From the IMG/VR virus record IMGVR_UViG_3300032216_000455, positions 1-34,357 of that record: DNA of 34,357 bases; one strand, written 5' to 3'. Shown here in pieces: positions 79 through 12,753 of this stretch (positions are counted from its first letter, which is position 1; each line of letters begins with the position of its first letter). Source of the DNA: a virus. Lineage: Duplodnaviria; Caudoviricetes. The translations under genes and the position numbers were made by a program. The notes below the pieces were generated by a model. It was not told where the DNA came from. It searched no databases and saw only the letters and a program-made list of their open reading frames with translations.

Positions 79-257
79 TACTTGAGATCAGCGTCGCCAT
101 GATGGACGGCTTTGTCCGCGAGTGGCTCAAGGACACGCTGGAGACGTTGGAGATCAACCTTGCCAGCGAGTACGTCCACCCAGAGGACAAAGCGACATAC
201 GAAAAGGACATCGAGGCCGTGAAACGGCTGCTGGATTACATTGGAGCAGACGTATGA
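75..257 (+). CDS. hypothetical phage protein (60 aa)
   Basis: GGAG upstream; ATGA overlaps at both ends, consistent with translational coupling to the polymerase. Confidence 0.8.
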   Translation: MILEISVAMMDGFVREWLKDTLETLEINLASEYVHPEDKATYEKDIEAVKRLLDYIGADV

Positions 258-2074
258 ACGTCATAGTCCTAGATTTTGAAACATTTTACAGCCAGCAGTT
301 CTCACTGTCGAAAATCACCACCGAAGAGTATATCCGTCACGAGCAGTTCGAGACCATTGGCGTTGCTGTGAAGGTCGATGGTGGCGAGACGCAGTGGTTC
401 ACCGGCCCCAAGGCCGCGACCAAGAAGTTCCTAGATCAGTTCCCTTGGGATGATGCGATTGCTGTTGCACATAACGCCATGTTCGATATGGCTATCCTGA
501 ACTGGCAGTTTGATATCCGACCCAAGCGGATCGCGGACACCCTGTCGATGGCACGGGCGCTGCATGGTACGGACGGGTTTAGCCTAAGCCTCAAGTCACT
601 GGTCGAGCATTACGGGATCGGCGTGAAGGGGACAGAGGTTATCAACGCGCTGGGTAAGCGCCGGCTGGACTTCACAGCGGAAGAGATGGAGCGTTACGGC
701 GACTACTGCATCAACGATGTGGAACTCACTTATGAGTTGTTCTGCCGTATCGCGCCAAGTTTTCCGCAGGTAGAATTTCGTTTGGTTGACCTGACACTGC
801 GGATGTTCACGGAGCCAAAGCTGGAACTGGATCGCTGGGCCTTGGTTGCCCACTTGGCTAAGGTGAAGAGCGCCAAGGAAGCCCTGATGTCGAAGCTGAA
901 CTATGACAAGGCCGACTTGATGTCGAACCCAAAGCTGGCCGAACTCCTGGAGTTTCATGGTGTCGATGTGCCGATGAAGGTCAGTCCTGCTACAGGCAAG
1001 CAGACCCATGCCTTTGCCAAGAATGATGAGGCTTTCAAGGAGTTGCTGGAGCATGAGAACCCGCAGGTTCAGGCGATTGTGGCGGCGCGTCTGGGTGTTA
1101 AGTCTACGCTGGAAGAGACGCGCACTGAGCGGTTCATCAATATTGCCAAGCGTGGGGCCTTGCCCATCCCCCTTCGTTACTACGCTGCCCACACGGGGCG
1201 CTGGGGCGGAGACGACAAAGTAAATATGCAGAACCTGCCGCGCAAGTCACCACTGAAACAGGCGATATGCGCACCAGACGGGTACTTGCTGGTGGACTGC
1301 GACAGCAGCCAGATCGAAGCGCGCACCTTGGCGTGGCTGGCTGGGCAGAATGACCTCGTTGAAGCCTTTGATAGGGGGGAAGATGTGTACAAGATCATGG
1401 CGTCCGCCATCTACGGCAAGGCGGTCGAAGAAATCACGGACAGCGAACGCTTCGTCGGCAAAACCACCATCCTCGGTGCCGGATACGGCATGGGTGCAGC
1501 CAAGTTCAAAGCCCAGCTAAAGACCTTCGGTGTCGATCTGGAACTGAGCGAGTGTGAGTACATCATCAACGTGTACCGCGAGACATACTCAAGGATACCG
1601 ATGCTGTGGCGTCAGGCGGGGGATGCTCTTGAGGCGATGATTAATAACAAGACTGCTCCTTTGGGTATACTTGGTGTTCTCTCGGTGCGCGGTGCAGACG
1701 GCATCAAGCTGCCGAACGGCCTGTACATTAAGTACCCCAACCTGCGGCGGGAAAATAACAATGGTAAGTCTGAGATGGTCTACGACACCAAGAAGGGTAA
1801 GGCGGTCATCCCGACCCGCATCTATGGCGGCAAGTGCGTCGAGAATGTGTGTCAGGCTCTGGCCAGGATCGTGATCGGTGAGCAGATGCTGATGATCGCA
1901 CGGCGACTACCCGTGGTGATGACTGTGCATGATGCTGTCGGTGCGCTGGTCAAGGTCGAGGAAGCGGATGAAGGTCGAGCCTTCGTCGAGCAGTGCATGA
2001 GGATCAGACCCAAGTGGGCAACAGCACTGCCACTAAACTGTGAAAGCAAGATGGGAGCAAGTTATGGCGGATGA
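254..2074 (+). CDS. polA: family A DNA polymerase with 3'-5' exonuclease domain
   Basis: ExoI VLDFET, ExoII AHNAMFD, ExoIII YCINDV; motif A DCDSSQIEAR, motif B RFVGKTTILGAGYG, motif C TVHDA. Likely start is ATG 254 (GGAG at 243-246), not 122. Confidence 0.96.
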   Translation: MNVIVLDFETFYSQQFSLSKITTEEYIRHEQFETIGVAVKVDGGETQWFTGPKAATKKFLDQFPWDDAIAVAHNAMFDMAILNWQFDIRPKRIADTLSMARALHGTDGFSLSLKSLVEHYGIGVKGTEVINALGKRRLDFTAEEMERYGDYCINDVELTYELFCRIAPSFPQVEFRLVDLTLRMFTEPKLELDRWALVAHLAKVKSAKEALMSKLNYDKADLMSNPKLAELLEFHGVDVPMKVSPATGKQTHAFAKNDEAFKELLEHENPQVQAIVAARLGVKSTLEETRTERFINIAKRGALPIPLRYYAAHTGRWGGDDKVNMQNLPRKSPLKQAICAPDGYLLVDCDSSQIEARTLAWLAGQNDLVEAFDRGEDVYKIMASAIYGKAVEEITDSERFVGKTTILGAGYGMGAAKFKAQLKTFGVDLELSECEYIINVYRETYSRIPMLWRQAGDALEAMINNKTAPLGILGVLSVRGADGIKLPNGLYIKYPNLRRENNNGKSEMVYDTKKGKAVIPTRIYGGKCVENVCQALARIVIGEQMLMIARRLPVVMTVHDAVGALVKVEEADEGRAFVEQCMRIRPKWATALPLNCESKMGASYGG

Positions 2075-2717
2075 GATTAAAGCCATTGAAACAAATTATA
2101 TGGGTTGTCGTTTCCGCAGTCGGCTCGAAGCGCGCTGGGCGGTGTTCTTCGACGCGCTCGGATGGAATTGGGAGCACGAGAAAGAGGGTTATGTGATTGG
2201 TTACGATAAGACCATTCCGTGGCTTCCCGATTTTGAGATTACCACACCAAAGGGCCAGCATTTCTATGTCGAAGTGAAGGGCGACCCTAACTTCTTTAAG
2301 GATGGTATTTGGCTTGAACGTTTGGATTGGCATGGAGGGCCACCTGGATTTCCGGATAGTAGTTGGGATTATTATTCTGATAAGGATAACGATCCATGTT
2401 TGACGACACGCAAACCGATTATACTTCTTGGAGATGTACCCCGTGTACGTGAAGGTGCAGAGATTTGGATGCCCGTTATATTCCATCATGAAGGAGTGCA
2501 TGGTCGTTACTGCCTAGTATGCCCAGACGGTCTGGAGTTAGTATACGATAGAAGGGTTAATTACACTTGGGATAATCTTGGCCCTTCTGGAGGGATCGAT
2601 AATTTCGGGGTAGCTGTTGGATGGGCGCAGTCACCAGAATCAGCTGCGGTAGTACCCGCTGTTCACGCTGCGCTGGGCGCTAGGTTTGAACATGGTGAGA
2701 AAGGAGCAAATAAATGA
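2064..2717 (+). CDS. PD-(D/E)XK family nuclease
   Basis: FRSRLEARWA...LPDF...YVEVKG signature; ATG 2064 with GGAG at 2054-2057; overlaps the polymerase 3' end. Confidence 0.8.
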   Translation: MADEIKAIETNYMGCRFRSRLEARWAVFFDALGWNWEHEKEGYVIGYDKTIPWLPDFEITTPKGQHFYVEVKGDPNFFKDGIWLERLDWHGGPPGFPDSSWDYYSDKDNDPCLTTRKPIILLGDVPRVREGAEIWMPVIFHHEGVHGRYCLVCPDGLELVYDRRVNYTWDNLGPSGGIDNFGVAVGWAQSPESAAVVPAVHAALGARFEHGEKGANK

Positions 2718-3400
2718 GCGAGTATCAATTCACCCAAGATTGGTTCAAGTGGGCACCTGCCGTGTGGGAGCAGATTATTCCGCTGTTGCCAGAGAAAAAG
2801 TCGTTCCTTGAAATCGGCTCTTTCGAGGGCCGCAGCACCGTCTGGATTATCGAGAACATGATGAACCCCGGCGACTGGATTGATTGCGTCGATACGTGGG
2901 AAGGTGGCGAAGAGCATAACAAAGAGGATATGCAGGATACGGAGTCACGGTTTGTTCACAACATCAACATCGCACTAAATGGTGCGGAGGTAACGGAACC
3001 CACCGAGTTTAGCTCCTCTCGTCATATCCGTTATGCGTCTCGTGCCCCCACCGAAGGGCAGCGGAAGCGTGTATACAAATACAAAACTACCTCGACGGAT
3101 ATGCTGGGCCAGAAGCTGCACTTCCAAATTGGCCACGTAAAGCCTGAGTATGTACCGATGTACGACTTCATTTATATCGACGGAAGCCACATCGCCAAGG
3201 ACGTTCTCACGGACGCTTGCATGGCTTGGCCGCTGCTCAAGCTTGAAGGATTTATGGTGTTTGACGATTACACATGGGGCAACCCGCGTGATGCACTGCA
3301 CCGGCCTAAGATCGCAATCGACGCCTTCACCAACATCTTCGGTGAGACGGCTGAGATCGTCCATGTTGGTTATCAACTCATAGTAAGGAAGAAGGGATAA
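2714..3400 (+). CDS. class I SAM-dependent methyltransferase (Methyltransf_24-like)
   Basis: FLEIGSFEGRS SAM-binding loop, CVDTW, YDFIYIDGSH, GFMVFDDY. Confidence 0.88.
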   Translation: MSEYQFTQDWFKWAPAVWEQIIPLLPEKKSFLEIGSFEGRSTVWIIENMMNPGDWIDCVDTWEGGEEHNKEDMQDTESRFVHNINIALNGAEVTEPTEFSSSRHIRYASRAPTEGQRKRVYKYKTTSTDMLGQKLHFQIGHVKPEYVPMYDFIYIDGSHIAKDVLTDACMAWPLLKLEGFMVFDDYTWGNPRDALHRPKIAIDAFTNIFGETAEIVHVGYQLIVRKKG

Positions 3401-3402
3401 AG

Positions 3403-3570
3403 ATGATGGAAATAGCATTTGGTGTCGGTGCCGCAGTCGGTTTCCTTTTGGGGTTGATTGCCGCCACAAGCCGTACAGGTCAGATCAAAGAAGAGAATGA
3501 TAGGCTGAACGCTGAACTGCACAAGCTAACAGACCGCGATTCCAAGGGTCGCTTTAGAGGAGGTAAGTAA
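3403..3570 (+). CDS. small membrane-anchored protein (55 aa), absent from ORF track
   Basis: Manual translation MMEIAFGVGAAVGFLLGLIAATSRTGQIKEENDRLNAELHKLTDRDSKGRFRGGK*: N-terminal hydrophobic helix, coiled coil, RDxxGRF motif; TAATG coupling to the next ORF. Confidence 0.75.
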   Translation: MMEIAFGVGAAVGFLLGLIAATSRTGQIKEENDRLNAELHKLTDRDSKGRFRGGK

Positions 3571-3731
3571 TGGGGAAGCCCAAGGGTAAAGCAAAGACCG
3601 CAGCAGGTCAGGTCAAGGTCATTCCGAAGCGGGCACCGTTCCGCAAGGTGTGCACCACCTGCCGCTCAAGCTGGCTGGGCGATTTGCTCTATAGCTGTGG
3701 ACACGATACTTTGATCGAGCAGAACATCTGA
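3570..3731 (+). CDS. small basic protein with possible Zn site (53 aa), absent from ORF track
   Basis: MGKPKGKAKTAAGQVKVIPKRAPFRKVCTTCRSSWLGDLLYSCGHDTLIEQNI*; CxxC...CxH; strong GGAGG SD; TGATG coupling. Confidence 0.72.
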   Translation: MGKPKGKAKTAAGQVKVIPKRAPFRKVCTTCRSSWLGDLLYSCGHDTLIEQNI

Positions 3732-3904
3732 TGCCGATGGTTAAGAAGGGTCGGTTCACATGGACACCCGAACTGGAAGCAAAGCTGATGGGCCTGTTTG
3801 GTTACGGGCTGAGAGCTGTTGATGTAGCCGAAGAGATGGGTATCTCCATCTGCGCTGCCGAAGCACGGTATCGCAAGCTAAAGAAAGAGCAGAAGGATGG
3901 CTAA
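3731..3904 (+). CDS. GcrA-N/Myb-like helix-turn-helix protein (57 aa), absent from ORF track
   Basis: MPMVKKGRFTWTPELEAKLMGLFGYGLRAVDVAEEMGISICAAEARYRKLKKEQKDG*; WT-x-E...L..L...G.....A..MG pattern typical of the GcrA N-terminal HTH. Confidence 0.7.
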   Translation: MPMVKKGRFTWTPELEAKLMGLFGYGLRAVDVAEEMGISICAAEARYRKLKKEQKDG

Positions 3905-4082
3905 GAAAAAGATCAGGGCCGAGGTTATAACCACGGTCATCCCTCATGTGGATGAGAAGCTGCAAGCTGCCTATGAGCGTCTCGCTATGCTCCACACCGA
4001 GACCATGGCTGAACTGGTCGAGGAAAAGAAATATAATCTCTGCCAAAGCTGGTGGTGCAGACTGAAGAGGAAATTTTCATGA
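3897..4082 (+). CDS. hypothetical protein (61 aa)
   Basis: Fills the gap between coupled ORFs; ATGA overlap with the next gene. Confidence 0.7.
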   Translation: MAKKKIRAEVITTVIPHVDEKLQAAYERLAMLHTETMAELVEEKKYNLCQSWWCRLKRKFS

Positions 4083-4840
4083 CTGAAGAAACTAAACGCC
4101 CCACGATCATGATCGCCACTCCCATGTACGGCGGTATGTGCACTGGGATGTACGTGATGGGCTTGCTCACCACCATGAACAAGATGCGTGAACTGGGTGT
4201 TGCGGTGCGTTGGTCGCACATGACCAATGAGAGCCTTATCACCCGCGCACGTAACGAACTGGCCCGCTCGTTCCTGGAAACAGACTGCGACTACCTGATG
4301 TTCGTTGATGCCGACATTGGCTTCGATGGAGAGGCTGTAGCCCAACTGCTGGCAGTGGATGATGATATCGTATGCGGTATCTACCCCAAGAAGGGTATCA
4401 ACTGGGATAGCGTGGGTCGCGCTGCAGTCGAGGGTAAACTAGACCTTGCGGATTACGCAGGTGACTTTGTGTTTAATATGGTAGGTGATCGACATGCCGA
4501 GACTGATGAGCGTGGTGTCGTTGAAGTACGTCATGGTGGTACTGGCTTTATGCTCATCAAGCGGGGTGTGTTCGACTACCTCAAGCCTCATGTGCCAACC
4601 TACCGCACATCATCAGAACAAGACCCCAAAACTGGGGAATATGTAAAGCCGCTGACCTATGAGTTCTTTGCTACCAGCATCGATCATACCGGCGCATTGC
4701 TCTCAGAAGATTACCACTTCTGCGAGTTGTTTCGTAAACATGGAGGGAAAATTTACGCGCATCCCTTCATCAAGCTGGAGCATGTGGGCACACATGTCTT
4801 TGGCGGTGACATCCTAAAGACGCGCAGCAGCCTAAAGTAA
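4079..4840 (+). CDS. GT-A fold glycosyltransferase-like protein
   Basis: IMIATPMYGG, ESLITRARN, LMFVDAD (DxD), GTGFMLIKR, LSEDYHFC; start at ATG 4079 via ATGA overlap. Confidence 0.8.
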   Translation: MTEETKRPTIMIATPMYGGMCTGMYVMGLLTTMNKMRELGVAVRWSHMTNESLITRARNELARSFLETDCDYLMFVDADIGFDGEAVAQLLAVDDDIVCGIYPKKGINWDSVGRAAVEGKLDLADYAGDFVFNMVGDRHAETDERGVVEVRHGGTGFMLIKRGVFDYLKPHVPTYRTSSEQDPKTGEYVKPLTYEFFATSIDHTGALLSEDYHFCELFRKHGGKIYAHPFIKLEHVGTHVFGGDILKTRSSLK

Positions 4841-4851
4841 GGAGCAAACAA

Positions 4852-5262
4852 ATGGCTAAGAAGAACTACGCATACGGCGAGAAGGCCGCACGGATCATGG
4901 ACTGGATCAACAAAGACCCTGGTGTATCCGACAAACATATCGCACGGCACATTGGATGCCACTACACTTACGTCTACTCACTGCGCAAAAAGATGGCGCA
5001 TCTAGATAGTCTGATGGAGCCAGGAGAAGATGAAACCGAAAGCGCCAACGATGTTCAGATGGGTGGCGACCACTACAAGCGCCTTGGCGTTGAGCCTTGG
5101 GATGTGTTTGATACATGGCCTATCGAGCAGCGGATCGGTGCATACCGTGCCAACTGCACCAAGTATGTGATGCGGTTGGATGCCAAAGATACCCCCTTGC
5201 TAAATGCCCAGAAACTGGCGCATTACGCGCAGAAGTTGGTCGAGGTGTTAGAGGAAAGATAG
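4852..5262 (+). CDS. HTH + DUF3310 (T7 gp1.7 nucleotide kinase-like) protein
   Basis: C-terminal QMGGDHYK...EPWD...NCTKYVMR...K resembles DUF3310; N-terminal PGVSDKHIARHIGCHYTYVY looks like an HTH. Confidence 0.7.
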   Translation: MAKKNYAYGEKAARIMDWINKDPGVSDKHIARHIGCHYTYVYSLRKKMAHLDSLMEPGEDETESANDVQMGGDHYKRLGVEPWDVFDTWPIEQRIGAYRANCTKYVMRLDAKDTPLLNAQKLAHYAQKLVEVLEER

Positions 5263-5263
5263 A

Positions 5264-5932
5264 ATGACAGCGTGGTCGTACAGCAGCATCAAGACTTTCG
5301 ACCAGTGCCCGAAGAAGTACTACCACCTCAAGGTGGCTCAGGATGTCAAGGACACGGGTAGTGAAGCGTCTGTATATGGGAACGATGCCCATGAAGCTGC
5401 TGAACACTACATCAAGCACGGGACGCCGATACCGGATAAGTTCAAGATCATGCGTCCCGTGGTTGAAACGCTAGCCAAGTTTCCTGGGGAGAAGCACACC
5501 GAGTTGAAGTTGGGGGTCCGCAAGACGGAGCATGGTTACGAGCCGTGTGGTTTCTTCAACAAGGATGTGTGGTGGCGCGGTATCGTCGATCTGCTTATTG
5601 TGGATGGCGATACCGCCCACATGGTGGACTACAAGACAGGCAAGAACGCCAAGTATGCGGACATGAAGCAGCTAGACCTAATGGCCGGCGCAATCTTCGT
5701 GCATCGTCCTGATGTAAAGCGGATCAAGTCTGGCTTGGCCTATGTGGTCAGCAACGAGTTCCCGAAGAAGACCCATTACCGCGAACATCTAGCCGACTAT
5801 TTGTCCGTGTTCGATACCCAGCTAGACCAGTTAGAAAACGCAATTGATAGCGGTGTATGGAATGCTAAGTCTGGGCCTTTGTGTGGCTGGTGTCCTGTGG
5901 TAAACTGTGAACATTATCGTCCTAGGAGATAA
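5264..5932 (+). CDS. Cas4/RecB-like PD-(D/E)XK exonuclease
   Basis: WSYSSIKTFDQCPKKY, GIVDLL, VDYKTGK, QL, C-terminal CGWCPVVNC (1+3 Cys Fe-S staple). Confidence 0.88.
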   Translation: MTAWSYSSIKTFDQCPKKYYHLKVAQDVKDTGSEASVYGNDAHEAAEHYIKHGTPIPDKFKIMRPVVETLAKFPGEKHTELKLGVRKTEHGYEPCGFFNKDVWWRGIVDLLIVDGDTAHMVDYKTGKNAKYADMKQLDLMAGAIFVHRPDVKRIKSGLAYVVSNEFPKKTHYREHLADYLSVFDTQLDQLENAIDSGVWNAKSGPLCGWCPVVNCEHYRPRR

Positions 5933-5934
5933 CC

Positions 5935-6231
5935 GTGCCATACAAGAACAAGGCTGATCGCAAGTATGCGAACGCCGCTAAATACGAAGCCCAGCCGCAG
6001 CAGGTGAAGAACCGCAGTGCGCGTGATGCCGCCCGCGACAAGCTGATGAAGGCCGGTAAAGTTAAGAAGGGTGACGGCAAGGATGTCGCCCACGTTGTCG
6101 CTCTGGACAAGGGTGGTAGCAACAAGCAGGGTGTGCGGGTGGAGAGTGCGTCAAAGAACCGCTCCTTCAAGCGCGATAGCAAGCACAACCTAGTGTCAGA
6201 AACTAGCAAGCGGGAACGCAAGAAGAAGTAA
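5935..6231 (+). CDS. HNH-like endonuclease / basic protein
   Basis: GDGKDVAHVVALDKGGSN...VESASKNRS resembles the phage HNH motif (DVDH...GG.N...NRS); GTG start with AGGAG. Confidence 0.7.
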   Translation: MPYKNKADRKYANAAKYEAQPQQVKNRSARDAARDKLMKAGKVKKGDGKDVAHVVALDKGGSNKQGVRVESASKNRSFKRDSKHNLVSETSKRERKKK

Positions 6232-6251
6232 CCCGCACAAGGAGCAAACTA

Positions 6252-7811
6252 ATGCGGACCGTTGATGATAAAGTCCTCCTCGTGGAGACACGAGACCCTG
6301 ATGCTATCACATCAGTTATCAAGAAAAGTACCGTGATGGAGACCCGTCGCGGGACAGCCAAGGTCGCTGTGCACTGGGGGCTGAAGGAAGCTCAGGCGCT
6401 GGCGACTCTCGGACATGATGCCCCTTCCCCACTATTGCGCGATTACCAGTGGACCGGGAAGTTTTCCCCATTCGAACATCAGAAGACCACATCGTCTTTC
6501 CTCTCGCTGCGTAAGCGGGCATTCTGTTTCAGCGAAGCGGGCACTGGCAAGACAGCCAGCGTGATCTGGTCTGTCGATTATCTCATGAAGCTGGGTAAGG
6601 TTAAGCGCGTCCTCGTGCTGTGCCCGCTGTCGATCATGAAGGCTGCATGGCAGCAAGACCTGTTTAAGTTCGCCATGCACCGTTCGTGCAGCGTGGCGCA
6701 TGGGTCTGCTGCCCAGCGCAAGAAGATCATCGCCGCTGGCTCCGAGTTCGTCATCATTAACTTCGACGGGCTGGCTGTGGTCAAGGACGAGATCGCCGCA
6801 GGTGGCTTCGACATGATCGTGGTGGATGAGGCGACAGCCTACAAGAACCCGCAAACGACTCGGTGGAAGATACTCAAAGACCTAGTCAAAGAAACAGACC
6901 CTTGGCTCTGGATGCTTACGGGTACACCGGCAGCGCAGTCGCCTATCGATGCTTATGGTCTGGCTAAGTTGGTAAACCCAGAGGGGTGCCCCAAGTACTT
7001 CGGTGCGTTCCGCGACTCGGTCATGTACAAGGTCACGCAGTTTAAGTGGGCGGTGAAGCCGCAGGCTCAGTCTATTGTGCATCGCATCCTGCAGCCGGCA
7101 ATCCGGTTCGAGAAAAGCCAGTGTCTCGATCTGCCAAAGGTCACCCATGTGGATCGTGATGCGCCTCTGACATCGCAACAGGCTAAGTACTATAAGACAC
7201 TCAAAAACCAGATGGTCATGGAAGCGGACGGCGAACAGATCAGCGCGGTCAATGCGGCGACTAACCTGAACAAGCTGCTGCAGATCAGCGGAGGCGCGGT
7301 CTATTCGGATACTGGCGAGGTCGTGCAGTTCGACGTCAGCAACCGCATCAACGCCGTGCTGGAAGTGATCAACGAAACCAACCGCAAGGTGCTGGTCTTT
7401 GTTCCCTTTACGCACACCATCGAGCTTCTGAAGGAGGCACTGGAGAAAGAGAAGATCAGCTGCGAGGTGATCAACGGCAAGGTCAACCTCAACAAGCGCA
7501 GCCAGATCGTCGCTGACTTCCAGTCGCTGCCCAACCCCCGTGTGCTCATCATCCAGCCACAGGCTGCATCGCACGGCCTGACCCTGACGGAAGCCGACAC
7601 CATCATCTGGTACGCACCTGTGACGAGCGTGGAGACATACCTACAGGCCAACGCCCGCATCGACAGACCAGGACAGAAGCATCCCATGACCATCGTGCAC
7701 ATCTCCGGCAGTGAGGTGGAACACAAGCTTTACACGATGCTGCGGGGCAACATTGAGAACCACCAGAAGATAATCGACCTGTACCGACAAGAAATTTTAC
7801 AAACCGCTTGA
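6252..7811 (+). CDS. SNF2-family (SF2) helicase
   Basis: Q motif PFEHQ, Walker A EAGTGKT, motif Ia VLCPLS, Walker B VVDEAT, motif III LTGTP, HGLTLT, motif VI QANARIDRPGQ. Confidence 0.93.
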   Translation: MRTVDDKVLLVETRDPDAITSVIKKSTVMETRRGTAKVAVHWGLKEAQALATLGHDAPSPLLRDYQWTGKFSPFEHQKTTSSFLSLRKRAFCFSEAGTGKTASVIWSVDYLMKLGKVKRVLVLCPLSIMKAAWQQDLFKFAMHRSCSVAHGSAAQRKKIIAAGSEFVIINFDGLAVVKDEIAAGGFDMIVVDEATAYKNPQTTRWKILKDLVKETDPWLWMLTGTPAAQSPIDAYGLAKLVNPEGCPKYFGAFRDSVMYKVTQFKWAVKPQAQSIVHRILQPAIRFEKSQCLDLPKVTHVDRDAPLTSQQAKYYKTLKNQMVMEADGEQISAVNAATNLNKLLQISGGAVYSDTGEVVQFDVSNRINAVLEVINETNRKVLVFVPFTHTIELLKEALEKEKISCEVINGKVNLNKRSQIVADFQSLPNPRVLIIQPQAASHGLTLTEADTIIWYAPVTSVETYLQANARIDRPGQKHPMTIVHISGSEVEHKLYTMLRGNIENHQKIIDLYRQEILQTA

Positions 7812-7835
7812 CATTGTATAATGTAAGAATAATGT
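7808..7835 (+). promoter_or_regulatory. sigma70-type promoter with overlapping inverted repeat
   Basis: Perfect TTGACA (7808-7813), 16-nt spacer, TAATGT (7830-7835); ACATT-gtat-AATGT dyad at 7811-7824; AT-rich intergenic gap. Confidence 0.65.
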
Positions 7836-7860
7836 GAGCGAACCAACGAAGGAGCCAACG

Positions 7861-8262
7861 ATGACAGATATGAAAGCGGACGAACTCGTCCTTGCCTACC
7901 GTAAGATACGCGATGTTATCAACGCAAAGGAAGAAGCGCACAAGGAAGAGATCACCGATCTCAAGGCGCAGCAGGATGTGTTGTCCGCTGCACTTCTCGA
8001 CTTGTGTAATGAGCAAAACCTCGATAGCATCCGCACCCCTGCTGGGACTGTAACGCGCACGGTTAGCACTCGCTACTGGACGAACGACTGGGAGTCTATG
8101 TACGATTTTATCCGTGAAAATGAGGCCATGCATCTGCTTGAACAGCGGATACACAACGGCAACATGAAGCAGTTCCTATCAGAAAATCCGGACGATCTGC
8201 CGGTCGGCCTTCAGGCCGATACCAAGTATGTCGTGCGTGTGCGTAAACCAACAGCCAAGTAA
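7861..8262 (+). CDS. conserved phage replication-module protein (coiled-coil N terminus)
   Basis: ATG 7861 follows AAGGAG; helical N terminus then SIRTPAGTV...DWESMYDFI; typical gene just before the SSB in this module type. Confidence 0.8.
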   Translation: MTDMKADELVLAYRKIRDVINAKEEAHKEEITDLKAQQDVLSAALLDLCNEQNLDSIRTPAGTVTRTVSTRYWTNDWESMYDFIRENEAMHLLEQRIHNGNMKQFLSENPDDLPVGLQADTKYVVRVRKPTAK

Positions 8263-8271
8263 GGAGCAAGT

Positions 8272-8418
8272 ATGGAGGACCAAGATACCTCGCTGCGTAA
8301 GGCAGCGTTGGAAAAAGCCATCATCGTAACGGCAAAGCAGCCGTACCACCTCATTCCGCAGGACGTTGTAAGCGTCGCAGAAGTTTTTTATCAGTTCCTC
8401 AAAGGAGAAACCAAATGA
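8272..8418 (+). CDS. hypothetical protein (48 aa), absent from ORF track
   Basis: MEDQDTSLRKAALEKAIIVTAKQPYHLIPQDVVSVAEVFYQFLKGETK*; AAGGAG SD; ATGA overlap with the next gene. Confidence 0.78.
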   Translation: MEDQDTSLRKAALEKAIIVTAKQPYHLIPQDVVSVAEVFYQFLKGETK

Positions 8419-9331: not shown

Positions 9332-9562
9332 ATGTCGTACGGCTATAGCCTAAGACTTATTGAACGGAATAGCCAAGCGAGTGAGAACAAGCTGGGCGTA
9401 CGACTGGGGCGGGTGTGCATTAAGCAGAATGTGCCCGTCACAGTTGTCGCCGGCAGGTTTGGAGTGACCCGACAGACGGTATATAACTGGTTCAGTGGGA
9501 CAGGTAATCCTGCTGAACCCCTCCACGGTCTGGTTACCCAATATATCTCTACGCTCACATAG
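9332..9562 (+). CDS. Cro/CI-type helix-turn-helix protein
   Basis: VPVTVVAGRFGVTRQTVYNWFSG is a classic HTH recognition helix. Confidence 0.85.
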   Translation: MSYGYSLRLIERNSQASENKLGVRLGRVCIKQNVPVTVVAGRFGVTRQTVYNWFSGTGNPAEPLHGLVTQYISTLT

Positions 9563-9590
9563 GGCTAGCCCTATGTCGTTTCTTCTTTTC
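9557..9590 (+). terminator. perfect 20-bp palindrome plus T-rich tail; probable terminator or protein-binding site
   Basis: ACATAGGGCTAGCCCTATGT (9557-9576) is its own reverse complement and is followed by CGTTTCTTCTTTTC. Confidence 0.55.
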
Positions 9591-9628: not shown

Positions 9629-12505
9629 ATGACAAACTTCGATCTTCTCCAGGCTGTTCAACCCGACGATGGCTACTTCGCTATTGTCGGGATCAAAGAG
9701 GACAGCTGGACCAAACAGGAACTGGTCGCTACGCGGGAAGAGGTCGATGCCCTTGCTGAGGAGTATATGGCTGAGGGCCGTAACGTCTTCTTCGGCGTTG
9801 CTAAGTACACTACGGATGAGAACCGCAAAAAGGAAAACGTAGCCGGTCTGAAATCCTTCTGGCTCGACATCGACTGCGGTGAGGCCAAAGCAGAGATCAA
9901 TGCGAAGACTGGACGTCCTGATGGCTACATCGATCAGGCAACAGGGCTGGAGGCACTTAAAGCTTTCCTTGAAACCACTGGTCTGCCCCGCCCTATCCTC
10001 GTCAACTCGGGGCGCGGGATACACGCATACTGGGCGCTGACCGAGAGCATCACCCGCGAGGAGTGGGAGCCGGTAGCAGCACGGCTGCATGACCTGTGCA
10101 ACATCCACAAGTTCTACATCGACCCGCAGGTCTTCGAAGTGGCGCGCATCCTGCGTATACCAGGCACCCTTAACTTTAAGGACAATCCCCCACACCCAGT
10201 GACCGTGCTGGCTACGACCAAACCGGTGGACTTCACGGTGTTTTACAAAACGCTAGGGGTGAAAACGCAAGACTTAACCCCCCTTGAAACTCCGAAGCGG
10301 GAACTATCGGACCTCGCCAAATCCCTGCAAGAAAACATAACGTCGCGCTTCAGCAAAATCATGACGCGGAGCGCCAAAGGCACAGGATGCCAGCAGTTGC
10401 TGGACTGCTATGAGAACCGCGATACCCTGTCGGAAGGCCGGTGGTTCAACGCGCTATCGGTGGCTAAGTTCTGCATCGATCAGGACACTGCTATCCATAC
10501 CCTGTCTGAAGGGCACCCCGACTACGAACCGGGCAAGACCCTACAGAAGATCAAGCACATCTTGGGGCCGCACACCTGTGATGTGTTCGAGCGCAATAAC
10601 CCTGGTGGCTGCGAAGGCTGCCCACATATGGGCAAGATCAAGTCGCCGATCATGCTGGGCCGTGAGGTTCAGGCAGCGACGGATGCCGATAACGTCATCG
10701 TTGAAGAACCCAAGATCGAAGGCACCCTGCCGACGATCCACCTGATCCCCGAGTATCCCTTTCCATTCTTCAGGGGAAAGGCCGGCGGCATCTACCGCAA
10801 GCCGCCATTGGATAAGAACGGTGAGGAGTCCGAAGAGGGCGACATCTGTGTGTTGCCATACGACATGTACATCCTGAAGCGTATGCGTGATCCGGTCTTG
10901 AAAGACGTCGCGGTGATCAAAATCCACAAGCCCAAGGATGGTGTCGCCGAACTTACGGTGCCCCTTACACAAGCTGTGGAACCTACGGATTTACGTAAGT
11001 TGCTGGCGGGGGAGAGCATCCTTTGTAGCAAAAAGCAGTTTGAGTTCATATCTGAATATATGAGAGCATCAGTATCGATGCTGTCCGACAAAGAGAAGGC
11101 AGAAAAAATGAGATTACAATTTGGATGGGCTGATAACGACAGCAAGTTTATCGTTGGTGATTCGGAAATCACGGTGGAAGGTGCCTATTACAGCCCACCA
11201 TCGTCAACCACTTCGGAGATCGCACGGCGCATGGGGCCGGTAGGTTCACTGGAGAAGTGGCAAGAAGTCTTCAACCTATACGGCACCCCTGGGCTTGAGC
11301 CACATGCGTTCGCTGCGCTTACTGGCTTCGGTGCGCCGATCTTTAAGTTCCTTGGTCAGCGCGGCGCTATGCTCAACGTCATTCACCCTAACTCAGGCAC
11401 CGGCAAGACAACGATCCTGCACATGGCGAACAGCATCTGGGGATCACCCGATGGCCTGTGCTGCGTGAAGGAAGATACGCTGAACGCTAAAATCCTGCGG
11501 TTGGGCATGTACAACAACCTGCCATACACCGTCGATGAGATGACCAACATGAAATGGGAAGACTTCTCGGCTCTGGTCTACAACATCACGCAGGGGCGCG
11601 GTAAAGACCGCGTTAAGGCATCGGCAAATGAACTGCGCCACAACGCAACCTCATGGCAGACGATGGCCCTGTGCTCATCCAACGCATCCTTCTATGAGAA
11701 GATGGGTGTCGCCAAGGGTAGCCCAGATGGCGAACTGATGCGCTTGGTCGAATACAAAATTGACTACACGACTTCACTCGATCCGTTCGTGGCCAAGGAC
11801 ATGTTCGATCATCAGTTGATGGACAACCACGGGCATGCAGGTCGCATCTACGCAACATGGCTGGTGAAGAACTACGAAGAAGCCAAGCGCCTTGCGCTTA
11901 ACACCCAAGCTAAGCTGGATCGTGAACTGCAGTTGATGCCTCGTGAGCGTTTCTGGTCGTCGGTGCTGGCTGCTAATCTGACAGGTGGCGCTATCGCCAA
12001 GAACATTGGTCTGATCGACTGGGATATGCCTCGTATCTATGACTGGGCTTGCAACATGCTGCTTGGCCTTCGTGAAGATGTAGAGCCACCGCGTAACAAC
12101 GCCATCGAGGTGGTCGGTGACTTTATCCGTCGCAACACGCAGAACATCTTGGTGGTCAATGATGGGGTGGACTTGCGTTCCAACATGCATGCCGCCCCGA
12201 TACTAGAACCCCGTGGTGAACTGACGATCCGCTGGGAGCCTGACACCAAGAAGATGTACATCGCCGTGGCCCCGTTCAAAAAAGACTGCGCTGCCATTCA
12301 GGTCAACTACAAGGAGACCCTTCGCCAGCTTCGGGAGCAGGGCGTGATGAAAGAGAAAGGCAAAGTGCTTAAGCGGATCAACAAGGGCATGAAGCTGGAA
12401 GGGCCGCCGATCTACTGCCTTGAGTTTGATACATCAGTCCAGGAGTTCTTTAACGTCAGCACTACCTTGGGCATTGAGATCAACGATGCAGATCGAGGGA
12501 GTTAG
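9629..12505 (+). CDS. primase-helicase: RepB-like AEP primase + Cys cluster + DUF927/P-loop helicase
   Basis: FWLDID, NSGRGIHAYW, RILRIPGTLNFK (AEP); GPHTC...CEGCPH; QFGW; Walker A SGTGKTT; Walker B TVDEM; GRGKDR. Confidence 0.9.
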   Translation: MTNFDLLQAVQPDDGYFAIVGIKEDSWTKQELVATREEVDALAEEYMAEGRNVFFGVAKYTTDENRKKENVAGLKSFWLDIDCGEAKAEINAKTGRPDGYIDQATGLEALKAFLETTGLPRPILVNSGRGIHAYWALTESITREEWEPVAARLHDLCNIHKFYIDPQVFEVARILRIPGTLNFKDNPPHPVTVLATTKPVDFTVFYKTLGVKTQDLTPLETPKRELSDLAKSLQENITSRFSKIMTRSAKGTGCQQLLDCYENRDTLSEGRWFNALSVAKFCIDQDTAIHTLSEGHPDYEPGKTLQKIKHILGPHTCDVFERNNPGGCEGCPHMGKIKSPIMLGREVQAATDADNVIVEEPKIEGTLPTIHLIPEYPFPFFRGKAGGIYRKPPLDKNGEESEEGDICVLPYDMYILKRMRDPVLKDVAVIKIHKPKDGVAELTVPLTQAVEPTDLRKLLAGESILCSKKQFEFISEYMRASVSMLSDKEKAEKMRLQFGWADNDSKFIVGDSEITVEGAYYSPPSSTTSEIARRMGPVGSLEKWQEVFNLYGTPGLEPHAFAALTGFGAPIFKFLGQRGAMLNVIHPNSGTGKTTILHMANSIWGSPDGLCCVKEDTLNAKILRLGMYNNLPYTVDEMTNMKWEDFSALVYNITQGRGKDRVKASANELRHNATSWQTMALCSSNASFYEKMGVAKGSPDGELMRLVEYKIDYTTSLDPFVAKDMFDHQLMDNHGHAGRIYATWLVKNYEEAKRLALNTQAKLDRELQLMPRERFWSSVLAANLTGGAIAKNIGLIDWDMPRIYDWACNMLLGLREDVEPPRNNAIEVVGDFIRRNTQNILVVNDGVDLRSNMHAAPILEPRGELTIRWEPDTKKMYIAVAPFKKDCAAIQVNYKETLRQLREQGVMKEKGKVLKRINKGMKLEGPPIYCLEFDTSVQEFFNVSTTLGIEINDADRGS

Positions 12506-12680
12506 GTACGACATCAACTGGAAAGCGTTCAAGAAGGGCACGTCGATCTTCATCCCGTGCCTCGACCCCCCACGGGCTAAGGAAGAAGTCAGAGCCATAC
12601 TGCGCAGGCTGCGCATCAAGGTGATTATGAAGCTCGTGATCGAGGAAAATATTAGGGGTTTACGGATTTGGCGTACATGA
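12486..12680 (+). CDS. small basic conserved phage protein (64 aa)
   Basis: MQIEGVRYDINWKAFKKGTSIFIPC...GLRIWRT; overlaps the primase end; start placed at ATG 12486. Confidence 0.75.
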   Translation: MQIEGVRYDINWKAFKKGTSIFIPCLDPPRAKEEVRAILRRLRIKVIMKLVIEENIRGLRIWRT

Positions 12681-12686
12681 TATTAA
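12659..12686 (+). promoter_or_regulatory. candidate promoter for the intergenic small RNA
   Basis: TTTACG (12659-12664), 16-nt spacer, TATTAA (12681-12686) preceded by TGn (extended -10); predicts a start near 12691-12693, the base of hairpin 1. Confidence 0.4.
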
Positions 12687-12690
12687 GGGA

Positions 12691-12753
12691 GCGGAAGTTT
12701 GCTCCTTCCGTTGGTTATCCTAGCCCCCAGTGTTAACGCACTGGGGGTTTTTT
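12691..12753 (+). ncRNA. candidate trans-acting antisense small RNA (~63 nt) targeting RBSs of replication genes
   Basis: Hairpin CGGAAG-TTTGCTC-CTTCCG, linker TGGTTATCCTA, then terminator. AGTTTGCTCCTT is the exact reverse complement of the helicase RBS (6239-6250); 12697-12716 matches the 7841-7859 leader at 18 of 20 positions. Confidence 0.6.
12723..12753 (+). terminator. intrinsic terminator between the convergent arms
   Basis: CCCCCAGTG-ttaacg-CACTGGGGG 9-bp stem followed by TTTTTT on the + strand. Confidence 0.9.

Follow-up and report, generated by a model that had tools for sequence, protein, structure and literature searches.

A candidate antisense RNA that follows early ribosome-binding sites in a large family of uncultured phages

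What is encoded in the short gap where the early and late genes of an uncultured phage converge, and why is this gap complementary to ribosome-binding sites (RBSs) of the early genes? The window analyzed here covers positions 1–34,357 of IMG/VR record IMGVR_UViG_3300032216_000455. It represents part (34 kb) of the genome of a tailed phage, in which the + strand carries the early/replication arm and the − strand the structural arm. The two arms meet at positions 12680–12752. A sequence-only reading of this DNA had proposed that the gap encodes one small RNA directed against many RBSs of the replication module. After refolding and checking of the coordinates, the hairpin, its anti-RBS loop and the + strand terminator are as that reading described them, as is the reverse complement of 12696–12716, and all nine RBS sites that it quoted lie where it placed them. 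It had missed a 64-residue open reading frame (12486–12680) and a predicted promoter overlapping its end.

Architecture and conservation of the cassette

The 64-residue protein, of unassigned function, is encoded by the last early gene (12486–12680, +), for which 163 homologues were found and whose 3′ end holds the predicted promoter. Its model is a confident small α/β fold (pLDDT 91), with an invariant F-x-P-C motif and a basic C-terminal strand; a fold search gave no clear match (best Z 5.0). The predicted −35 hexamer TTTACG (12659–12664, +) is located inside the last codons of this gene. It is separated by a 16-nt spacer from a predicted −10 hexamer TATTAA (12681–12686, +), which has no T at position −7. 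The promoter of the window is too weak to be detected by a consensus scanner.

The small RNA predicted from these elements would be about 62 nt long (12692–12753, +). It starts with a seed hairpin (12692–12710, +), the stem of which is formed by 12692–12697 and 12705–12710. The loop (12698–12704) and the first stem bases constitute the anti-RBS seed. A single-stranded linker follows (12711–12721, +) that likely serves as a second pairing segment, directed to leader sequence preceding the Shine-Dalgarno (SD) element of the target. A one-directional intrinsic terminator (12722–12753, +, or 12722–12749 in a narrower delimitation), with its U tract on the + strand, would end the RNA and also closes the early arm. 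With 5′ ends set at 12690–12693, loop residues 12699–12704 have an unpaired probability of at least 0.98, and a region of 111 nt folds with a z-score of −3.81.

Relatives were collected using homologues of the 64-residue gene as a handle. The sample of the locus comprises 312 entries from six scans, the window included and some contigs repeated, the viral-contig alignment scans contributing the best 80 of 520–583 confirmed stretches each. Usable loci, with the Gam-like gene presented below, the primase gene and downstream DNA, numbered 285, some of them redundant. Lineages were defined at 80% primase identity, yielding 78, and the covariation test was repeated at 70%. Gene starts were those of our own SD-weighted gene caller. 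The phage family is abundant, as about 700 stretches in IMG/VR match the marker gene. Complete relatives are about 62 kb long with direct terminal repeats. Four loci from metagenome-assembled genomes (MAGs) carry the locus, on phage-sized contigs with discordant labels. The cultured relatives Pseudomonas phage Rollin and Rhizobium phage RHph_TM3_14A have the primase and Gam-like genes in common with the family, but no such cassette or common tag at the arm end. In four Rhizobium phages, the primase/DUF927 homologue (L329:8731-11814 in the latter) is labelled "putative integrase", which is probably an error.

A locus was considered cassette-positive when a plus-strand terminator was present at most 125 nt past the last gene, which was the case in 249 of the 285 loci and 60 of the 78 lineages. 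This classifier is crude: L033 and L241 were filed as negative despite having the cassette, and L070 as positive despite its lost hairpin. The GCTCCT core is present in 97 of the first 111 entries. Across the family, the predicted RNA is 48–103 nt long, with a median of about 71. Among 59 distinct sequences, five of the six pairs of the seed stem show changes on both sides, and the stem covariation score was reached by none of 500 shuffles, a control that leaves relatedness in.

The promoter is conserved together with the seed. The −35 hexamer is identical in 52 of 64 distinct seed-bearing segments and is replaced in most loci without seed. TTTACG or xTTGCG predominates in 62 cassette-positive lineages, TATCCG or CATCCG in 17 negative ones, and a TA is found 16–18 nt past the hexamer in 59/62 positive versus 10/17 negative lineages. 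The register of the promoter is retained where the stop codon of the 64-residue gene shifts. The lineages without cassette (L028, L133, L138, L140, L152, L154, L166, L169, L305 and others), in which the promoter hexamer is changed and no common tag is found, are natural negative controls. The locus is considered to be a real, conserved and previously undescribed unit of predicted promoter, hairpin and terminator in a large family of uncultured phages.

Appositions in the terminator read on the + strand comprise 26 G-U versus 2 A-C, and an A-run that would serve the opposite strand occurs in 1 of 62 lineages. The assignment of the transcript to the + strand is based on the promoter register and this one-way terminator; the seed hairpin by itself folds better on the − strand in 43 of 59 cases. 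Hairpin energy was dropped as strand evidence, as it favours the − strand.

Covariation of the seed with early gene starts

The primary target predicted in the window is the leader and RBS (7841–7859, +) of a Gam-like or Pam3 gp33-like (DUF7307) gene (7861–8262, +). The match is bipartite, with one mismatch in the seed, and the predicted duplex energy is −26.6 kcal/mol. The family assignment of the gene comes from sub-threshold Pfam matches of its homologues (DUF7307 in 42/58, Mu Gam in 29/58), and a fold search against the PDB gave no match. It is the first gene past a TTGACA promoter (7808–7821, +) overlapping a near-palindrome, half of which is the −35 box. TTGAC is found upstream of the Gam-like gene in 72 of 79 lineages, and the palindrome is perfect in 16 of 79. 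G001, one of three complete or near-complete relatives (G001–G003), has related sites at two further early positions. The near-palindrome may be an operator, perhaps for the helix-turn-helix (HTH) protein encoded at 9332.

Some relatives carry additional elements in this leader. Six loci (L002, L006, L015, L090, L107 and L108) share an insert located between promoter and RBS, some 100 nt before the Gam-like start, that looks structured. It is absent from the window and gave no Rfam match in L002 or L015. A tRNA occupies the same spot in L024 and L104, and other inserts are found in L053 and L099/L110.

Covariation was evaluated by computing the duplex energy of each RNA with each orthologous start, and testing the diagonal after subtraction of the row and column means. 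With one locus per lineage (80% identity), the cognate duplex at the Gam-like leader was better in 56 of 60 lineages, with z = −11.7. The signal persisted at 70% identity (z = −7.1, 26/28) and among 65 distinct close loci (z = −8.2), a set that left out L046, L051, L082, L088 and L106, which are truncated or mis-started, and L028 and L033, which offer no usable RNA segment. The 18 cassette-negative lineages gave no signal (z = −0.8). Seed TTGCTCC faces a Gam-like RBS GGAGCAA in 25 of 27 lineages, TAGCTCC faces GGAGCTA in 8 of 8, and TCGCTCC faces GGAGCGA in 2 of 3. Even where distant clades have entirely different seeds, each seed fits the RBS of its own clade (L119, L124/L187, L105/L170, L200, L240, L275 and L287). 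The linker co-varies separately from the seed, cognate pairings exceeding non-cognate ones (z = −2.6, p = 0.006, n = 38 lineages), with lineage-specific matches of 10–14 nt in L009, L105 and L170. The sequence-only reading had proposed checking whether the seed follows the RBS motif in relatives, and it does.

There are exceptions. The loop of the L080 clade mismatches its RBS spacer, L015, L089, L112 and L115 are off by one, and L070 has no hairpin and retains the RBS. Changes on the stem side are mostly not followed by the targets, and a test of independent pairs on one loop variant gave p = 0.5 with only three pairs. The Gam-like gene at 7861 appears from these comparisons to be the sole universal, and the ancestral, target of the putative RNA.

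The mismatches do not bear out the G-U bias that had been read as a mark of RNA-RNA pairing (21:14 versus 35:39 in the control, p = 0.23; 39 of G-U type versus 46 of A-C type). As three tests gave no significance, G-U bias was rejected as evidence for either RNA pairing or strand. The mirror-strand duplex is as good as the plus-strand duplex. The pairing geometry taken alone is therefore also compatible with a tag bound by a protein.

Support differs among the other sites in the window. The RBS of the SNF2 helicase gene (6239–6250, +) matches at 12 of 12 positions and is a supported target in the lineage of the window. Covariation at this start reached z = −4.8 among close kin, and −2.1 and −1.2 at the lineage level (80% and 70%, respectively), and a compensatory change is found in the L010 clade. 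The RBS of the DUF3310 gene (4839–4849, +) is a likely target, as the motif recurs at the same gene in relatives, and so is that of the gene at 8272 (8261–8271, +), where the motif is kept in L034, the sole other orthologue found. The RBS of the gene at 2064 (2053–2063, +) is a possible target; similar sites follow polA in G001, L029 and L030. The match at the methyltransferase gene (2701–2711, +) is local and not conserved, being absent at six full-length orthologue starts and present in L085 and L093. That at polA (243–251, +) is also local only, being absent at the polA starts of G001–G003.

The putative SSB gene owes its name to the sequence-only reading, family scans having given only unnamed PHROGs. 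Its RBS (8402–8411, +) is probably not a target here, and is targeted only in some other clades. Its covariation was z = −0.1 among close kin, and −3.2 (80%) and −1.7 (70%) at the lineage level. The predicted energies at this site and at the site at 63 (−13.6 and −12.4 kcal/mol, respectively) are no better than those of many late starts; the late starts 27329 and 28463 reach about −20 kcal/mol through generic SD pairing. Primase, HTH, exonuclease and the gene at 5935 showed no significant cognate covariation in the close-kin and lineage tests, nor did the last early gene among 65 close loci. The polA, primase, HTH and exonuclease genes and the genes at 5935 and 75 were rejected as conserved targets.

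Between HTH and primase, a terminator-like hairpin at 9557–9576 of the window could be an attenuator, and is variable in relatives. At the same junction, one large clade (L188, L209, L214, L233, L236, L249, L250, L261, L266 and L125) has a conserved, structured-looking leader of about 60 nt with complementary ends.

The extended RBS tag distinguishes early from late starts. In the window, GGAGCA[AG] precedes 6 of the 19 early starts called and none of the 21 late ones. The counts are 11/49 versus 0/48 in G001, 13/36 versus 1/48 in G002, and 14/38 versus 0/52 in G003, with Fisher tests among GGAG starts giving p = 0.0007, 0.008 and 0.0006, respectively. In the first 54 loci and the window, 62 of 192 distinct early GGAG starts continue with CAA, versus 1 of 28 late ones. 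In four bacterial MAGs, which may not be hosts, AGGAG followed by CAA before ATG accounts for 41 of 2079 AGGAG..ATG sites (about 2%; a few on phage contigs). The motif is early-specific, with 0–1 late occurrences per complete genome, rather than equally common at late starts or MAG RBSs. A late gene located directly before the major capsid gene (L055:7971-8585 in G001, and its G003 orthologue) has the RBS GGAGCTA, one base off the tag.

The tag also depends on the seed. At early GGAG starts other than that of the Gam-like gene, GGAGCAA is found in 38 of 143 cases with the matching seed, in 5 of 106 with unrelated seeds and in 3 of 57 without cassette. Pairing over eight bases occurs at 51 of 300 early starts in lineages with the seed of the window, versus 13.5 with foreign seeds, and at 7 of 89 late starts. 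Counts of AAGGAGCA and GAGGAGCA sites are 8 and 0 in G001, 6 and 6 in G002, and 5 and 8 in G003. In the L010 clade, to which the G002 and G003 counts belong, an altered RNA stem is matched by a shift to GAGGAGCA at many starts.

The proposal that one RNA has several targets is supported for the lineage of the window, with 11–14 tagged early starts per complete genome. It does not extend beyond lineages with the GGAGCAA seed, as 34 lineages with other seeds show no multi-target excess within 10 kb (20/427 versus 15.7 expected), and a broad regulon is thus established only for the lineage of the window. The replication module does not describe the target set: the polA starts of the three near-complete relatives are devoid of the motif, the primase start does not co-vary, and the tagged genes are often small early hypotheticals. 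The tag-bearing set spans the early arm and includes many such genes beyond those of replication.

A putative trans-acting RNA and its alternatives

Since the loop is complementary to early RBSs and changes with them, the cassette probably yields a trans-acting antisense RNA of about 62 nt that would block ribosome loading on the early mRNAs of the phage itself and switch these genes off together. At the sequence level, the following features of a trans-acting small RNA are found: a predicted promoter of its own, an accessible seed, an intrinsic terminator and compensatory evolution of seed and targets. The RNA would be transcribed by the host σ70 RNA polymerase from the weak promoter that overlaps the 3′ end of the last early gene; processed read-through transcripts from the primase gene may add to the pool. 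The U/C-rich loop would nucleate on the SD sequence and spacer of the target, the stem would open, and the linker would pair upstream, so that 30S loading would be blocked by two-segment pairing as in c4. The ancestral target would be the Gam-like gene, which follows the strong promoter at 7808, and 5–14 further early genes would have been recruited in the lineage of the window by gaining the same tag. As this main target is the gene directly following a strong TTGACA promoter, the putative RNA would be a brake on the translation of a strongly transcribed operon, and of the recruited early genes as well. Because late genes avoid the tag, accumulation of the RNA during the lytic cycle would shut early translation and spare the late genes, as a timer or feedback.

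The same molecular mechanism could serve another purpose, superinfection immunity or a carrier state, the RNA of a resident genome silencing the early genes of its own and of incoming kin, with seed variants acting as immunity groups like those of P1/P7 c4. Besides that precedent, as given in the part of PMC5320573 consulted, the host-type promoter and the divergence of seeds between clades would fit. Such a role is nevertheless unlikely. A single seed is common to 27 lineages, and only the four MAG loci mentioned above, on phage-sized contigs with discordant labels, were found. The carrier or lysogenic state suggested by the sequence-only reading finds no support, as integrase, repressor and partition families were not matched among 41 proteins of the window and 50 of the 86 called proteins of G001.

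Hok-like systems provide the analogue for a regulator acting in cis, by fold-back of an mRNA 3′ end. Here, the hairpin would be the 3′ end of a polycistronic mRNA running from the Gam-like gene to the 64-residue gene, and would pair with its first RBS or act after cleavage, making a separate promoter unnecessary. This would account for the universal target being the leading gene of the operon ended by the terminator, and is consistent with the weak promoter of the window and with a crude scan in which just 8 of 79 lineages showed a terminator at the HTH–primase junction. We consider it quite unlikely, as the register of the promoter is maintained, and has decayed in lineages that lost the cassette. 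Also, the helicase gene and at least 10 other tagged genes precede the 7808 promoter and belong to other transcripts; the window itself has the terminator-like site at 9557–9576; and the distance to be bridged is 4.8 kb.

The tag could instead be bound by a protein, either a translational repressor on RNA or a stoperator-like factor on DNA. The inverted copy, read on the − strand where the late arm ends, would then be a decoy or an operator. Covariation between copy and sites would be expected in this case too, no G-U bias was observed, and the hairpin does fold well on the − strand. In the window, the late arm lacks its own terminator, so that late read-through could cross the cassette. Against this very unlikely reading, promoter and terminator both indicate a plus-strand transcript, and the specificity of a protein can hardly explain lineage-specific matches of 10–17 nt together with a second segment that co-varies separately. 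Fold searches with the 64-residue protein yielded no candidate binding protein.

Finally, it is highly improbable that pairing activates or stabilizes the targets, or that titration of host mRNAs by a generic anti-SD sequence is the main effect of the RNA. Pairing of the CUCCUU core is possible with every strong SD, those of two late starts among them, but the predicted duplex covers SD and spacer, the non-SD loop bases follow a phage RBS, and the tag is rare (about 2%) in the four bacterial MAGs, which may not be hosts.

Comparison with known systems

The antisense RNA proposed here would be aimed at genes of the phage that encodes it. The sar RNA overlaps its target, whereas the predicted RNA is 4.8–12 kb away from its targets (243–8411), on the same strand and without overlap. 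P22 sar and λ OOP, the latter classed as cis-acting, are 60–80-nt phage RNAs that repress a phage gene, according to the sections consulted of the review PMC12197685. The c4, sar, OOP and aQ RNAs are credited with one phage-gene target each in the consulted parts of reviews.

The closest precedent is c4 of P1/P7, which acts in trans on a phage RBS, covering it with one loop while another element pairs upstream, in variants that co-vary with their targets (consulted portions of PMC5320573, PMC12197685 and PMC2864571). The present locus has in common with c4 an RBS-covering loop and an upstream specificity segment, as judged from prediction and covariation. It differs in giving no Rfam covariance match (RF01695), in consisting of one seed hairpin and a terminator instead of three stem-loops with a′ and b′ loops, and in having its own predicted promoter, whereas c4 is released by RNase P. 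The target of c4 is an antirepressor mRNA; here, the targets would be the Gam-like gene, with weak DUF7307/Mu Gam matches and no antirepressor family match, and up to about 14 early genes, in phages that show no sign of lysogeny. The locus would work like P1 c4 but is not c4. Rfam searches gave nothing at the locus in the window and only two tRNAs in 10 relatives; a match to ar14 (E = 0.56) lies elsewhere in the window, in a coding region.

RsaE/RNAIII and the alphaproteobacterial AbcR/ar14 are trans-acting anti-SD small RNAs with C/U-rich loop seeds. The predicted RNA resembles them in its promoter, loop seed, intrinsic terminator and many targets, and differs in being encoded by a phage, aimed at its own genes, and matched by an extended tag that has co-evolved at the targets. 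Sponge RNAs of CsrA/RsmA have a number of loop-exposed GGA motifs on the transcribed strand. As the plus-strand loop is pyrimidine-rich and the predicted RNA has its sole GGA in the stem, this class was rejected. A literature search covering titles and abstract openings found no such system. Three 12-nt forms of the seed (four strings) were absent from the three supplements searched, out of six, of a catalogue of phage RNAs (Fremin 2023, PMC10690425), and the motif may be among the unnamed candidates in its alignment files.

A possible analogue in cultured phages is the start-associated sequence (SAS) of cluster K mycobacteriophages. According to the part of PMC3203893 consulted, this extended-RBS repeat is found only at non-structural gene starts and in one orientation, except for a single reverse copy per K1 genome; an RNA or protein partner was suggested and the function left open. 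Both systems combine an extended-RBS repeat at non-structural starts with a reverse copy, some genomes here having a few further reverse or late-strand copies. The sequence is different (outside AGGAGC, it departs from the 13-bp SAS consensus) and the phages are unrelated. No antisense RNA is proposed in that part of PMC3203893, whereas the reverse copy here is a co-varying cassette. In Anaya (JF704106), the lone reverse SAS (about 59870–59882; L327:7871-7883) occupies the loop of a hairpin predicted on the transcribed strand, within an intergenic gap that follows a terminator; the fold of the whole region has a z of only −1.08. Matches to this gap are found in 128 mycobacteriophage records. 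Of five others aligned, four retain the loop exactly or nearly so, and it is changed in SirPhilip. The parallel is a lead.

The natural compensatory changes over dozens of lineages, which map the putative RNA, its main target and its recruited regulon, are unusually strong evidence for an uncultured system. If the proposal is true, it explains how early genes could be shut off in an abundant family of phages, and the seed/RBS variants are natural orthogonal pairs. It is quite possible that a general, unrecognized control layer exists in phages, in which one RNA addresses a whole temporal class of genes through a co-evolved RBS tag, much as a repressor does through its operators, and that SAS is the same device, independently evolved; the function of SAS would then become approachable in cultured mycobacteriophages.
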